Position numbers and translations under genes: made by a program | Notes under the pieces: model-generated | What the model was told of the DNA's origin: nothing | Database searches by the model: none | Seen by the model: only the letters and a program-made list of their open reading frames with translations | Shown here: one piece after another, positions 9,478 through 41,451 of the stretch | Position numbering within the stretch: the stretch's first letter is position 1 | How the letters are laid out: each line of letters begins with the position of its first letter | Virus record (IMG/VR): IMGVR_UViG_3300044712_000792 | Span: 1 to 64,000 of that record | DNA: 64,000 nt | Source of the DNA: a virus | Strand: one strand, 5' to 3'

Positions 9478-9519
9478 GTTTTGCTAAAAGAATATAATCC
9501 AAAAGGTATGGAGGATGTA

Positions 9520-25134: not shown

Positions 25135-25139
25135 AAAAA

Positions 25140-25163
25140 TTATTGTGTATTTGTTTTAATAAT
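25140..25163 (+). promoter_or_regulatory. Recurrent phage promoter-like motif (copy)
   Basis: TTATTGTGTATTTGTTTTAATAAT then GGAGG. Confidence 0.75.
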
Positions 25164-33045: not shown

Positions 33046-34296
33046 ATGTTTGTTCCTAGATTATTGTTTGAAGATACTGATGACATTCCATTGACCCTTG
33101 AAAATGGGGATAAAGGTATAAATGTATTAAGCCTTTTTGATGGAATAAGTTGTGCTAGACTTGCATTAGATAAAGCAAACATAAAGGTAAATACTTATTA
33201 TGCCTCTGAAATTGACAAGTATGCTATTGCTATTTCCAAAAAGAATTACCCAAGCATTATACCTATTGGTTGTGTGGAAAACATAAGTTTTATAGATAAT
33301 ACTTTAATATCACATATTGACGATATGATAACTTTCAAAAATCCTAGTATTGATTTGATTATAGGTGGTAGTCCTTGTCAAGACCTTTCAATAGCAAATA
33401 AGGGTAGGGAAGGTTTGGCGGGTAAAAGGTCAGGTCTGTTTTGGGAGTATGTAAGAATAGTAAAAGAAATAAGGCCAAAGTATTTCATATTGGAAAATGT
33501 AGCCTCAATGCCTAAAGAAGCTAAAATGGTTATTACAGAAGCATTGTTTGGTGTTACTCCTAATATTATAAATGCTTCTTTAGTTTCGGCACAGCAAAGG
33601 AAAAGGCTGTTTTGGGTCGGAGTTAAAAATGGAGATACTTATGATTCTGTTCTAATCCCACAGCCTACCGATAAAGGAATTATGCTTAAAGATATAATAG
33701 TCAATGAGGTTGATGAGAAATACATTATTTCAGATAAGCATTATGAACGAATGAAAAGCCATAATAAGAACTTTAAGGTTAGAGATTTGGATGGTAAAAC
33801 AACTACTATTATAGCTTCTTATTATAAAATACCTTCAGATGGTAACTATGTGCGAGTAGCAAAAGCACCAAACGGTAAAATATTGGTGATACATATGGAC
33901 AAGACACCCCATTCTTTTAAAGAAGTAAGAACAGATATAGGGAAAGCAAAGAGAAGAGAACATAGAAAATTGACTGGTGAAGATACTACAAGGCGTGGTA
34001 TAGATGATAAAATGTATATTCCAAACACTTCTGGTAAAGCTAACTGTGCCACAACAGCAGTAGGTGTAGAAGGTTTAATAGCCGATACTGATTATGTTAG
34101 AAAGCTATTACCTATTGAGTTTGAAAGATTACAATGCATCCCTGATTATTATACTGCTTTAGGTATAGATGAATTGGGAAAAGAAATAGAGATTAGTGAT
34201 ACCCAAAGATATAAAACATTGGGAAATTCGTTCAACGCAGAGGTAGTAGCACATATTTTCCGTTACATATCGCAGAAAGAATATAAATCTGCGTAA
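33046..34296 (+). CDS. DNA (cytosine-5) methyltransferase
   Basis: SLFDGI, GGSPCQD, LENV, QQRKRLF, ERLQ, LGNSF. Confidence 0.95.
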   Translation: MFVPRLLFEDTDDIPLTLENGDKGINVLSLFDGISCARLALDKANIKVNTYYASEIDKYAIAISKKNYPSIIPIGCVENISFIDNTLISHIDDMITFKNPSIDLIIGGSPCQDLSIANKGREGLAGKRSGLFWEYVRIVKEIRPKYFILENVASMPKEAKMVITEALFGVTPNIINASLVSAQQRKRLFWVGVKNGDTYDSVLIPQPTDKGIMLKDIIVNEVDEKYIISDKHYERMKSHNKNFKVRDLDGKTTTIIASYYKIPSDGNYVRVAKAPNGKILVIHMDKTPHSFKEVRTDIGKAKRREHRKLTGEDTTRRGIDDKMYIPNTSGKANCATTAVGVEGLIADTDYVRKLLPIEFERLQCIPDYYTALGIDELGKEIEISDTQRYKTLGNSFNAEVVAHIFRYISQKEYKSA

Positions 34297-34307: not shown

Positions 34308-34381
34308 AGGCGGTTGGTGAAATAGTATCACAGATGGCTTTGACCCATCAGTCGTTGGAGCGTAACCAGCACCGCCTGCCA
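34308..34381 (+). tRNA. trnQ: tRNA-Gln(UUG) with encoded CCA
   Basis: Acceptor AGGCGGT/ACCGCCT, D stem GTGA/TCAC, anticodon stem GATGG/CCATC with loop CTTTGAC, T stem GTTGG/CCAGC, 3' G-CCA. Confidence 0.9.
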
Positions 34382-34432
34382 ATATCTACAATATATAGTC
34401 CTATTACTAAACGCAACCACAATTAGTGCTAC

Positions 34433-34461
34433 TTGACAAAATCAAGTTTTTGATACATATT
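34433..34461 (+). promoter_or_regulatory. Host sigma70-type promoter
   Basis: TTGACA-N17-CATATT upstream of GGAGGTG SD. Confidence 0.6.
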
Positions 34462-34500
34462 ATATATGCAAGGCAATGGATGCCTTGAGGGAGGTGGCAG

Positions 34501-35517
34501 ATGAAAAGGACAGAAGGAAATGAAGAAAAGAAGGCCTTGACAAACGCCACCGGAAATGATATATTAGATAGTGGGAGGTTCGGGATGGAAGTAGTAGAGA
34601 AGAAGAAAAGAGGAAGACCTAGGAAGGTTGTTCCTGTTGTTGAAACCATTGTGGAAGAATCTGTAAATGATGTGATGGAGAAGGTTATGGCAAATGTAGA
34701 TGCGGATAACATTACCTTTGATGTCTGTTCTAATTGCGGTTCTATGCTGATTAAAGAAGACAACGAAATGGTTTGTCCTAATTGCGTAGAACTTCCAATT
34801 TCAAAGACTTGTTCAGAGTGTGGTGGATTTCTTATGGAAGTTGATGGAGAGACCATTTGTGGTTCTTGCGGTAAAGTTTTCTCCGACACTCCCAATGTAA
34901 ACGCTTGCTCTGATTGCGGTGGTGTCATCTTTACCGAGGAAGACGAGAGCATGTGTTCTTGCTGTGGGAAGGTGTTCTTCGTAAAAGAAGCAAAGGAAGA
35001 AGTTGTTGTGAATGAGGTATTTACCGATGAATTGGCAAATATCATCAAGTCAGAACATCAGCTTTTTTCTAATCTTGCTTCTAAATACGCCAATTCCTTC
35101 ACTGGCGATAAGGAAGACTTGTATAACGACTTGGTAATCAAGACTTACGAAATCTACAATGCCAAGGCAAGCCAGTTCTGCGGTTACAATGCGGACTTCA
35201 GAAACTTCCTTATTAGGTCACTCAAGAACTACTGCCTTAACTCTATTTCCTACGCTAATAGGCACGGAAATAAGGAAGCCAATGAAATACCCGAAAACTA
35301 CCACAAGGCTTCCACTACGATTGAATACAACGACCTTACGGCAAGGGAAAGGTATTTGATAGAGGTATTTGATGTCCTAGATACAGAGAAGTATAACATC
35401 AAGAAGTGGGACGACAAACGCCTTCTAAATACCGTCTGTGTGGATATAGCTGAAAAAGAGAACACAGACCCTCACTACATCTTGAGAGAGTTTAAGGTTC
35501 TAGCTTCTAAACTATAA
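34501..35517 (+). CDS. AT-hook + three zinc ribbons + sigma70 region-2-like regulator
   Basis: KKRGRPRK; three CxxC-x12-CxxC units; LASKY...DKEDLYND...FRNFLIRSLKNYCLN. Confidence 0.65.
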   Translation: MKRTEGNEEKKALTNATGNDILDSGRFGMEVVEKKKRGRPRKVVPVVETIVEESVNDVMEKVMANVDADNITFDVCSNCGSMLIKEDNEMVCPNCVELPISKTCSECGGFLMEVDGETICGSCGKVFSDTPNVNACSDCGGVIFTEEDESMCSCCGKVFFVKEAKEEVVVNEVFTDELANIIKSEHQLFSNLASKYANSFTGDKEDLYNDLVIKTYEIYNAKASQFCGYNADFRNFLIRSLKNYCLNSISYANRHGNKEANEIPENYHKASTTIEYNDLTARERYLIEVFDVLDTEKYNIKKWDDKRLLNTVCVDIAEKENTDPHYILREFKVLASKL

Positions 35518-35559
35518 CCTTAACATTGCTTGGATTGGCTATTGAAAGGAGAGTGTGCG

Positions 35560-36015
35560 ATGAAAGTAGAACTCAAGAACCTCGAAGGACACGACGGACA
35601 CGATAGCTTTTGCTTCAGAGCAACCCTTTATGTTGATGGGGTTAAAAGTGGCGATGTAACCAATGATGGCAATGGTGGTTGTCATATGTTTGATGATTGG
35701 AATGTTGCCAAAAAGCTAAATGAGTATGCCAAAACCTTACCCAAAAACAAATTTCCAGCAGAGTTGGGTGGTGGGGAATATGAACAGAGTGCAGACTCTT
35801 TGGTTGATGATGCTATTGATGCTTACTTTAAAGCTAAAGACGAGAAGAAATTCAAAAAGGCTTTGGAAACTATGACACTTTTCACGCTACCCGAAGATAA
35901 AGCTAAAGGTATTGCCTATAGGTCTCTTAAAGCACCTTATAGCGAAAAGACAAAAAGCTTCATTCTGTCAAAATTTCCCAATGCTACCATTTTGAATGAG
36001 GGAGGTAGAAAATGA
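35560..36015 (+). CDS. Hypothetical protein
   Basis: AAGGAG SD; CFRATLYVDG...NDGNGG. Confidence 0.65.
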   Translation: MKVELKNLEGHDGHDSFCFRATLYVDGVKSGDVTNDGNGGCHMFDDWNVAKKLNEYAKTLPKNKFPAELGGGEYEQSADSLVDDAIDAYFKAKDEKKFKKALETMTLFTLPEDKAKGIAYRSLKAPYSEKTKSFILSKFPNATILNEGGRK

Positions 36016-36278
36016 AAAAGTACATTGTTTGGGACAGAACCGATGAAGGAGAATCTAAACCCGATGTTAGAGAGGCTGTGGAGGCTGTAGTTCCAAAAGA
36101 AAGAATCAATGTATTTAAACTTTGTTGGTATTTAATTATCAACAAGCGTTTTCGCTTCTTTCTTGAAGAAACACTTAAATATGCCTTAAGACATTCTGAT
36201 AGCTATTGTGGTGAAGGTGCAAGCGATGTAATATTGTTTAGGCATACGAAAGCCTACGGAAAAATATGGAAAAACTAA
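36012..36278 (+). CDS. Hypothetical protein
   Basis: GGAGG SD; ATGA overlap. Confidence 0.55.
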   Translation: MKKYIVWDRTDEGESKPDVREAVEAVVPKERINVFKLCWYLIINKRFRFFLEETLKYALRHSDSYCGEGASDVILFRHTKAYGKIWKN

Positions 36279-36331: not shown

Positions 36332-36353
36332 ATTATGTATTTGTTTTAATAAG
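36330..36353 (+). promoter_or_regulatory. Recurrent phage promoter-like motif (copy)
   Basis: TTATTATGTATTTGTTTTAATAAG directly after terminator. Confidence 0.75.
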
Positions 36354-40689: not shown

Positions 40690-41094
40690 TTACATCACAT
40701 TATTGCTTGAGAAATTGAATAAGAACTGTTGGTCGGTTGAGGTTTCAGTATTCCTTACATTCATAACAATTATCATTTTTACATTGTAATCTTCTGTATC
40801 ACCAACTGGACTGAATGTTATGTACAAAGAATCCACAGCTAAATATGACAGATATTTTTTCATTTGTAAGGTTATTATATTACGAATTTCTTGGATTACT
40901 AGGTCTGTTGATGGGGCAAACAAGTAACTTCTTATGCCTATACCGAACTCTGGGTATCCTACTCTTTCACCTGGAACAGTCATAAGTAGCTGATAAATAT
41001 TGACATACATACCTTCAACAGAACTTCTATCTGTGCCTTGAAAATATCCATCGGTCATAGATTTTTTGAAAGGTATTAAAATGCTATTTGGCAC
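40690..41094 (-). CDS. Baseplate wedge/sheath initiator (gp25/gpW-like)
   Basis: LLMTVPGERVGYPEFGIGIRSYLF. Confidence 0.9.
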   Translation of the reverse strand: MPNSILIPFKKSMTDGYFQGTDRSSVEGMYVNIYQLLMTVPGERVGYPEFGIGIRSYLFAPSTDLVIQEIRNIITLQMKKYLSYLAVDSLYITFSPVGDTEDYNVKMIIVMNVRNTETSTDQQFLFNFSSNNVM

Positions 41095-41097
41095 TTA

Positions 41098-41322
41098 TCA
41101 CTCCTTTTGTTTATATTCTTTACGGTCATTCAATATAGCAGAACCTTCATATTGTATCAATAATGTTATTTCAATAATCCCTGTTTTGTTGTCCCTTGTT
41201 GCTGAAATTGTTTTAACATCATTTACCGAACCCCACCTTCCTTGACAATTTTCCAAAATTTCGTTAATCTCTTCCGTTACATCGCTTTCGCTACCTTTGA
41301 ATGTCTTGATTAAAACCTTCAT
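41098..41322 (-). CDS. Hypothetical protein
   Basis: AAGGAG SD on minus strand. Confidence 0.55.
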   Translation of the reverse strand: MKVLIKTFKGSESDVTEEINEILENCQGRWGSVNDVKTISATRDNKTGIIEITLLIQYEGSAILNDRKEYKQKE

Positions 41323-41451
41323 AAGTCTCCTTCACGAGTTTTGGTGTCAATTTCTTGAACCGGGCTTTACTTTATATTCTTTTCCGAATTAGAATAGAAT
41401 ATAAGATAAATGGTTATTTACCTTGAAATATAAGAAAAAAAGGGGTCAATT

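Follow-up and report, generated by a model that had tools for sequence, protein, structure and literature searches.

Does the 338-residue open reading frame (ORF) at positions 34501–35517 of the IMG/VR virus record IMGVR_UViG_3300044712_000792 encode a sigma factor, and if so, what is the unusual N-terminal half of the protein for? The record is a linear viral contig of 84,696 bp from a rhizosphere metagenome, and the window analyzed here is its first 64 kb. An earlier reading of the letters (hereafter the original prediction) described the ORF as an early phage regulator in which an AT-hook and three zinc ribbons precede a part resembling region 2 of extracytoplasmic function (ECF) sigma factors and a degenerate region-4-like tail, and proposed that the protein may read a recurrent promoter motif. 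The ORF and all of the peptides quoted for it (KKRGRPRK, the ribbons, EDLYND and LTARERYLI) are present as described. We conclude that the ORF very probably encodes a sigma70-family protein of the sigma2-sigma4 type, highly divergent in sequence, and that it is likely to function as a sigma factor. On balance we favor the combined reading of a working sigma factor with an N-terminal extension of a novel kind. The layout is best read as a minimal group-4 (ECF-like) sigma2-linker-sigma4 core, spanning residues ∼176–338, plus an N-terminal accessory module of ∼170 residues.

The protein is helical from about residue 176 onward, and the peptides EDLYND, FRNFLIRSLKNYCLN and LTARERYLI all lie in this C-terminal half. 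An AlphaFold2 model of residues 170–338 had a mean predicted local distance difference test score (pLDDT) of 72.9. When this model was compared with 48,161 PDB representatives using VIA-align, sigma factors occupied 17 of the top 20 ranks, among them sigB (Z = 8.3), SigW (7.8), SigE (7.5), SigK (7.5) and domain 2 of sigma70 (7.4), together with RpoE, CnrH, sigma28, sigH, BldN, RpoS, pro-sigmaK, ShbA, sigL and sigma32. Domain-level superpositions gave root-mean-square deviations (rmsd) of 2.8–3.7 Å over 74–82 residues (2.8 Å over 74 for sigma70 domain 2), and the alignments to whole sigma factors covered 130–141 of the 169 modeled residues and spanned both domains. The Foldseek list for the PDB consisted almost entirely of ECF sigmas (sigma-E region 2, rmsd 3.0 Å, template modeling score, TM, 0.55–0.57), with poor E-values because the relative orientation of the two domains differs. 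Named matches in BFVD were phage ECF-type sigmas, with a top probability of 0.95, and the nearest ESM-Atlas clusters (score 0.96, 180 shared features) were viral proteins of ∼180 residues with Sigma70_r2, Sigma70_ECF and helix-turn-helix (HTH) families. The original prediction depended in part on a sigma2 fold in the C-terminal domain, and such a fold was found by AlphaFold2, VIA-align, Foldseek and BFVD alike: the model of residues 176–255 matches sigma70 domain 2, sigma-E, SigW, SigK, SigE and RpoS. The region-4-like tail is likewise real at the level of fold. It forms a three-helix HTH (LTARERYLIEVF ... VDIAEKENTD-PHYILREFKVLASKL) that superposes on the LuxR-type HTH of DosR at 1.8 Å over 48 residues in VIA-align, and it follows the sigma2-like domain after a flexible linker of ∼25 residues, with neither a sigma1.1 nor a sigma3 domain, an arrangement recognizable at fold level only.

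In sequence, the resemblance to ECF region 2 holds for the register of conserved positions and stays below threshold in score. The Pfam Sigma70_r2 profile (PF04542) matched the ORF over model positions 3–70/71 with 12.1 bits (E = 0.17) against a cut-off of 24; when the phage's own genome was scanned with this profile, the ORF was the sole match (14.8 bits, E = 0.00175). With hhalign the ORF aligned to Escherichia coli RpoE at E = 6e-4 and a probability of 29%, in the canonical register, and small profiles built from six E. coli sigmas gave probabilities of about 5%. An ECF profile based on RpoE contained only orthologues at least 86% identical and was too uniform to be useful. When the ORF was aligned by MAFFT with the Pfam-defined sigma2 segments of RpoD, RpoS, RpoH, RpoE, FliA and FecI from E. 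coli, the A-x-K/R-Y, D-L-x-Q/N-E/D and F/W-L/I-x-R positions kept their canonical register. Region 2.1 reads LFSNLASKYANS in the ORF and LVISIAKKYTNR in RpoD, region 2.2 shows a conservative retention (DLYND against DLIQE), and region 2.3/2.4 of the ORF, DFRNFLIRSLKNY, aligns with DPRSFLCTIAKRV of FecI and ATWWIRQAITRS of RpoD. We calibrated the Pfam score with two proteins of Bacillus phage SPO1. The product of gene 28 (gp28) is a textbook, experimentally proven middle-gene sigma factor. In the same Pfam test gp28 scored 13.1 bits and gp34 25.4 bits, so a score below the cut-off is normal for genuine phage sigmas, and routine Pfam annotation misses real phage sigmas, the present ORF and SPO1 gp28 alike.

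Ahead of the sigma core, residues 1–75 are mostly disordered in the full-length model (pLDDT about 30), with a single low-confidence helix predicted at residues 55–65. The AT-hook sits in this region, as is typical for AT-hooks, and has an R-G-R-P core with basic flanks (KK-RGRP-RK); its score against the Pfam AT_hook profile (PF02178), 11.5 bits, lies below the 17.4-bit cut-off, which is usual for a motif of 13 residues. The three zinc ribbons that follow had been called TFIIB-like. They are real as C4 ribbons, with PF06677 the sole zinc-ribbon family above its cut-off (28.2 bits against 24.1, E = 2e-6) and several other zinc-ribbon Pfam families matching more weakly. The TFIIB-type label did not hold: PF08271 reached 16 bits against a cut-off of 29, and the ribbons are therefore generic C4 ribbons by sequence, not specifically of the TFIIB type. 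Ribbons 2 and 3 share 44% identity over 32 residues by manual count, and CGKVF ends both. Neither the ribbon module nor the sigma core has a paralogue within the contig, and an ESM-Atlas feature search with the N-terminal half returned nothing usable (score 0.77). Nine further plus-strand ORFs, mostly small, carry single C4 zinc-ribbon motifs between 1526 and 26939 (starting at 1526, 1647, 8237, 14803, 17653, 22706, 23748, 26613 and 26880), with no detectable paralogy to the ribbons of the sigma gene.

The combination of head and core appears to be confined to this contig. Word-indexed and exhaustive phmmer searches of 1.8 billion representative proteins returned a single relative of the sigma core, P0002, a stand-alone protein of 194 residues, a typical size for a small sigma, with 57% identity over residues 174–338 and no ribbons. 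For the N-terminal half, the same searches found only generic zinc-ribbon proteins (P0003–P0005). Among 50,697 phage records, tblastn found no match to the whole protein (E ≤ 1e-3) or to the sigma core (E ≤ 10), and profile scans of IMG/VR viral contigs and JGI metagenome contigs found no relative. Because P0002 stands alone without ribbons, the sigma core is, by sequence comparison, an autonomous module; with the sole relative unfused, the fusion is a singleton and the AT-hook and ribbon head an addition seen in this contig only. The original prediction knew of no standard sigma factor with this architecture, and we too found no true precedent for an AT-hook and three-ribbon N-terminal head on a minimal sigma. 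Coordinates of all features are collected in Table 1.

Table 1. Positions of the features discussed, in window coordinates except where a contig position or an accession is given.
Feature	Position	Strand	Basis or remark
ORF, 338 residues: AT-hook, three zinc ribbons, sigma2-linker-sigma4	34501–35517	+	ATG start
AT-hook core KKRGRPRK, residues 35–42	34603–34626	+	Sequence reading; acidic stretch (residues 44–75) after it
Zinc ribbon 1, C76–C95, CSNCGSMLIKEDNEMVCPNC	34726–34785	+	CxxC-N12-CxxC; beta-hairpin in model
Zinc ribbon 2, C104–C123, CSECGGFLMEVDGETICGSC	34810–34869	+	CxxC-N12-CxxC; model
Zinc ribbon 3, C136–C155, CSDCGGVIFTEEDESMCSCC	34906–34965	+	Tandem duplicate of ribbon 2
Sigma2-like four-helix domain, residues 176–255, hallmarks of regions 2.1–2.4	35026–35265	+	pLDDT 80–90; fold matches
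Disordered linker, residues 256–280, no sigma3 domain	35266–35340	+	pLDDT below 50
Sigma4-like three-helix HTH, residues 281–338	35341–35514	+	pLDDT 60–83; fold matches
P1, host sigma-A-type promoter-like site, TTGACA-17-CATATT	34433–34461	+	10/12 consensus match
Shine-Dalgarno sequence GAGGGAGG	34488–34495	+	Sequence reading; 5 nt 5′ of ATG-1 (34501)
P2, internal host-type promoter-like site, TTGACA-17-TATATT with TG	34537–34565	+	11/12 consensus match
tRNA-Gln, anticodon UUG	34308–34381	+	ARAGORN; sigma gene 120 nt further 3′
Best example of the TTTGTTTTA block	25136–25162	+	Directly 5′ of the DNA ligase Shine-Dalgarno sequence; candidate middle promoter
Other strong block sites (TTTG starts)	3117, 5992, 8339, 12543, 18737, 20451, 22611, 28878, 33019, 36340	+	
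AAAGAATATAAAC copies in the window	9488–9499, 34277–34288	+	
AAAGAATATAAAC copies in the window	41109–41120, 41370–41381	−	
AAAGAATATAAAC copy beyond the window	contig 74133–74144	−	
AAAGAATATAAAC copies beyond the window	contig 74168–74179, 79791–79802	+	
SPO1 gene 28	NC_011421, 89514–90191		
SPO1 gene 34	NC_011421, 112042–112635		
Phage vB_BceM-HSE3 gp017	MF418016, 9483–10091		Annotated "RNA polymerase sigma-E factor precursor"

The contig is a myovirus fragment. CheckV puts its completeness at 41%, so that the full phage genome is probably ∼200 kb. The first 37.5 kb form a plus-strand block of DNA replication and nucleotide metabolism genes, including SbcC/SbcD, a DnaB-like helicase, primase, DNA ligase, RNA ligase, dUTPase, exonucleases, homing endonucleases, a C5 methylase and an RNase T-like exonuclease, and the remaining part contains one match to a tail-sheath stabilizer. 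Because the best cultured matches of the helicase are SPO1/SP-10-type Bacillus phages (at just ∼27% identity) and strong ribosome-binding sites of the GGAGG type occur throughout the contig, a Bacillota host is likely. Overall, the 84.7 kb hold no RNA polymerase signature: PF00623 and PF00940 had no match, and the DFDGD motif was not found. The sigma gene itself has a GC content of 0.40–0.41. At third codon positions its GC content (GC3) reaches 0.385 over the N-terminal half and 0.512 over the sigma core, whereas five neighboring genes have values of 0.23–0.31. The gene is compositionally foreign and, together with the adjacent tRNA-Gln, has the look of an acquired cassette; the N-terminal half and the sigma core may differ in origin. 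Two small ORFs (152–161 and 88 residues) lie within 35530–36278, the first beginning 13 nt past the sigma stop codon; neither has a Pfam or PHROG family. They are probably co-transcribed with the sigma gene, and a role as co-factors or anti-sigma is possible.

How is the gene itself expressed? It had been taken for an early gene, and it sits where an early gene would, behind host-type promoter-like sites. The spacer of P1 holds the palindrome ATCAA-N4-TTGAT, a possible operator. P2, the sole 11/12 match on the plus strand of the contig, is followed by its own GGGAGG (34573–34578) and then by ATG-29 (34585), so that a second isoform of 310 residues is possible. Host-type promoter-like sites are not enriched in the contig overall, which makes this correctly placed pair noteworthy, and early transcription of the sigma gene by the host holoenzyme can reasonably be inferred from it. 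Another contig of this rhizosphere sample, 2,132 nt long, carries a 33-nt copy of 34432–34464, the P1 region, with one mismatch. The flanks of this copy are unrelated to those of the sigma gene, so a P1-type early promoter may be repeated elsewhere in the phage or in a relative.

And what might the factor read? The recurrent motif to which the original prediction had pointed, TTTGTTTTA, is indeed enriched, with 21 copies against 4.2 ± 2.3 expected and not one of 100 shuffles reaching 21. Its extended form is one contiguous block of ∼25 nt, AaAA.aTTATTaTGTATTTGTTTTAAtaa, with 11 strong copies, all on the plus strand between 3.1 and 36.3 kb. At eight of the 11 sites the block ends 16–20 nt from a start codon, directly 5′ of the Shine-Dalgarno sequence, and at the other three it lies 30–57 nt upstream of the start codon. 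The annotated genes behind strong sites, DNA ligase and the C5 methylase, serve replication and modification; several other downstream genes have no family, and the site at 36340 comes after a strong intrinsic terminator. Apart from the promoters of the sigma gene, the 37-kb plus-strand block has no intergenic promoter of host type, and the most economical reading is therefore that the TTTGTTTTA block is a phage-specific middle promoter. The fixed distance from block to Shine-Dalgarno sequence also fits another reading, in which the block may be a 5′ untranslated or translational-enhancer element; a similar U-rich stretch (TTTGTTTAAC) immediately precedes the Shine-Dalgarno sequence in the T7 gene-10 leader. 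Two hexamers were tried as −35 elements and rejected: TTATTG would place the −10 on the Shine-Dalgarno sequence, and TTGTTT has no consistent −10. That the sigma factor reads the TTTGTTTTA class is a tentative proposal, for which the case is circumstantial.

Putting these elements together, we propose the following sequence of events. Host RNA polymerase with its primary sigma would transcribe the gene early from P1 and P2, as their consensus matches suggest, yielding perhaps both the 338- and the 310-residue isoforms, each with the AT-hook. The fold and the conserved positions suggest that sigma2 would then bind the host core polymerase through region 2.1/2.2 (LFSNLASKY/DLYND) and redirect it to phage promoters. 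At these promoters the head would supply contacts absent from an ordinary sigma. The likeliest form of this is that the AT-hook settles into the minor groove of the promoter-side A/T tract and the ribbons touch DNA or polymerase, a step that we regard as plausible without favoring it; the head would thereby perform in cis the task that has been proposed for the CarD/CarG pair, in trans, with the ECF sigmas of Myxococcus. The likeliest target would be the ...TTATTaTGTATTTGTTTTAA... block ahead of the plus-strand replication and nucleotide metabolism genes, making the factor a middle-gene switch like SPO1 gp28, again a suggestion that we hold with some reserve. Sigma-dependent transcripts would then start a few nucleotides downstream of TTTGTTTTAA, and the 5′ edge of the block, with its A-tract and TTATT, would suit an AT-hook. 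A more far-reaching version, which we consider doubtful, is that the AT-hook and triple-ribbon head replaces classical −35 recognition, so that one polypeptide with three kinds of DNA-reading module reads a single contiguous promoter of ∼25 nt. Sigma2 would lie on the T-rich, −10-like TTTGTTT core, and the neighboring TTATT and A-tract would be read by the AT-hook and ribbons.

Several observations weigh against this account of the protein and its promoters. All sigma-family sequence scores fall below significance (Pfam below cut-off, hhalign probabilities of 5–29%), and the Pfam Sigma70_r4 and r4_2 profiles have no match to the ORF. The model of residues 170–338 was built from an alignment of two sequences, and VIA-align Z-scores of 7–8 are in the range that, as the tool warns, may arise for helical bundles; the argument for a sigma fold thus rests on the makeup of the match lists and not on the Z value. 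In the full-length model the head is arranged as beads on a string, with no confident contact with the sigma core (predicted TM score 0.30), and with the fusion known from this one contig only, its conservation cannot be shown. On the DNA side, nothing is conserved upstream of the block and no −35 partner occurs at 16–18 nt, and a contiguous block is not what a factor with sigma2 and sigma4 classically reads. There is, in addition, a second class of motif, AAAGAATATAAAC, with eight copies at no more than one mismatch against 2.3 in shuffles. It contains a TATAAA core like that of T4 late promoters and stands just ahead of the ribosome-binding site of the structural operon on the minus strand (start at 41094). 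It also occurs between the divergent genes near 74.1 kb and, in one copy, 19 nt 5′ of the tRNA-Gln. We regard it as a candidate late-promoter class, which would imply a second specificity factor; since the contig covers an estimated 41% of the genome, further sigma or specificity factors may be encoded in the remainder.

Other explanations accept the sigma core and assign the head, or the polymerase, differently. The main rival for the role of the head is that it is regulatory, an autoinhibitory, pro-sequence-like element or a zinc or redox switch that masks the sigma until it is cleaved, oxidized or displaced, on the model of the N-terminal extension of BldN or of fused anti-sigma domains. 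Where ECF sigmas are known to carry N-terminal extensions, these work by way of proteolysis, by inhibiting contact with DNA or through instability (PMC7826278). In the ORF an acidic stretch (residues 44–75) follows the basic AT-hook, P0002 exists without the module, and P2 with ATG-29 allows isoforms. Both predicted isoforms, however, retain the AT-hook and ribbon module in full, no ribbon docks on sigma2 or sigma4 in the model, and the ribbons are of the CxxC...CxxC form and not the HxxxCxxC of zinc-binding anti-sigma (ZAS) domains; we consider a masking head unlikely. Instead of the host enzyme, the factor could have as its partner an RNA polymerase that the phage itself encodes in the ∼59% of its genome beyond the contig, as the estimated 41% completeness would allow, but the 84.7 kb of the contig lack any of the polymerase signatures sought (PF00623, PF00940, DFDGD), and the nearest cultured relatives of the helicase, the SPO1/SP-10-type phages, use the host polymerase with phage sigmas (PMC13401047), so we give this alternative very little weight.

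A further alternative is that the protein initiates nothing. It would then be a decoy that mimics sigma, or a plain DNA-binding regulator, acting on AT-rich DNA of phage or host or on RNA polymerase and repressing or activating without replacing sigma. The sub-threshold family scores and moderate Z-scores would suit this, as would the match of the C-terminal HTH alone to response-regulator effector domains and a contiguous 25-nt motif that is more like an operator than a −35/−10 pair. It is nevertheless quite unlikely in our judgment: the domain order, linker length, region 2.1–2.4 pattern and match lists fit complete sigmas and not HTH regulators, and the ESM-Atlas neighbors carry sigma families. 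Finally, the fusion might be an assembly artefact or a recent accident, the real products being a separate zinc-ribbon protein and a sigma of ∼170–190 residues. The singleton status of the fusion and its unfused sole homologue are compatible with this, GC3 differs between the halves (0.385 vs. 0.512), and contigs from two DNA runs leave the gene body without independent cover, a result of no weight because such contigs are filtered. Set against this are a frame that is open throughout, with no start codon bearing a Shine-Dalgarno sequence evident at the junction (residues 160–175), and two halves that both differ in composition from the neighboring genes and share one promoter and Shine-Dalgarno arrangement; an artefact or accident is, in our view, highly improbable.

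Few proteins of bacterial transcription have been studied as closely as sigma factors, and phage sigmas are the classic tool of host takeover. In this setting a head of ∼170 residues that combines an AT-hook with three zinc ribbons would give a minimal sigma additional contacts with promoter or polymerase in a new way, and it could explain the use of compact single-block promoters by the phage. For synthetic transcription circuits it would offer a compact and possibly orthogonal component. Should the head indeed replace −35 recognition, the protein would be a cis-fused equivalent of CarD/CarG plus an ECF sigma, and a bacterial-type sigma with an N-terminal zinc-ribbon module like those of archaeal TFB and eukaryotic TFIIB.

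Several known systems resemble parts of the protein. The tandem C4 ribbons at the C terminus of bacterial topoisomerase I, which bind single-stranded DNA and contact the RNA polymerase beta-prime subunit, also come three or more in a row and are the nearest ESM-Atlas structural neighbors of the N-terminal half; the TM scores are just 0.27–0.33 with predicted models on both sides and no sequence relationship, and we treat the match as a lead only. Bacillus phage vB_BceM-HSE3 gp017 has been cited as an ECF sigma with a double zinc ribbon (PMC7826278) and, like our query, is a phage protein, annotated sigma-E, with several CxxC zinc ribbons. No sigma family matched it in Pfam at E ≤ 0.1, and neither sigma2 nor sigma4 was detectable; its sigma-E annotation looks wrong from its sequence, and we rejected it as a precedent for a ribbon-bearing sigma because it is a ribbon-only protein whose similarity to the query is just that of Cys motifs.

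The best-documented functional parallel comes from Myxococcus xanthus. There CarD uses a disordered domain with four AT-hooks to bind minor grooves of AT-rich DNA next to promoters of ECF sigmas; together with its zinc-bound partner CarG, it is proposed to help position the holoenzyme of RNA polymerase and an ECF sigma, e.g., DdvS (PMC6061681). CarD and CarG are separate proteins that act in trans, CarD has four AT-hooks where the query has one, and CarD binds the RNA polymerase beta subunit through a CarD_CdnL_TRCF domain that is absent from the query. By functional analogy only, without homology, the query combines in one protein the AT-hook, the zinc modules and the ECF-like sigma.

For the core, the ECF (group 4) sigmas, such as E. 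coli RpoE, Bacillus subtilis SigW and Mycobacterium tuberculosis SigK and SigH, share the sigma2-linker-sigma4 plan without regions 1.1 and 3, provide the best structural matches and, in RpoE and FecI, align in register with region 2 of the ORF. N-terminal extensions in ECF sigmas are described as rare and short (PMC7826278), whereas that of the ORF has ∼170 residues and four recognizable modules. The ORF further differs in that its sequence is below every family threshold, no recognizable anti-sigma gene adjoins it, and the candidate promoter lacks a −35/−10 pair of the AAC/CGT type.

The middle and late sigmas of SPO1 offer a comparison in phage biology at the level of role. Their sequences show no significant similarity to the ORF: hhalign gave probabilities of 0.3% against gp28 and 1.4% against gp34, and scanning the genomes of SPO1 and HSE3 with a profile brought no match. 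The annotated lengths of gp28 (225 residues) and gp34 (197 residues) leave no room for an N-terminal extension of ∼170 residues, and the contig has no −35 element of the AGGAGA type. AGGAGA-N16-18-TTTNTTT, which we take to be the gp28 promoter consensus, has four forward matches in the SPO1 genome against none in the control, one of them between genes 28 and 27, and these sites include TTTGTTT at −10, the core of the block described here. Like the query, gp28 is almost invisible to the Sigma70_r2 profile of Pfam, and gp28 and gp34 are small sigma70-family proteins of a large lytic myovirus that redirect the host RNA polymerase to later genes.

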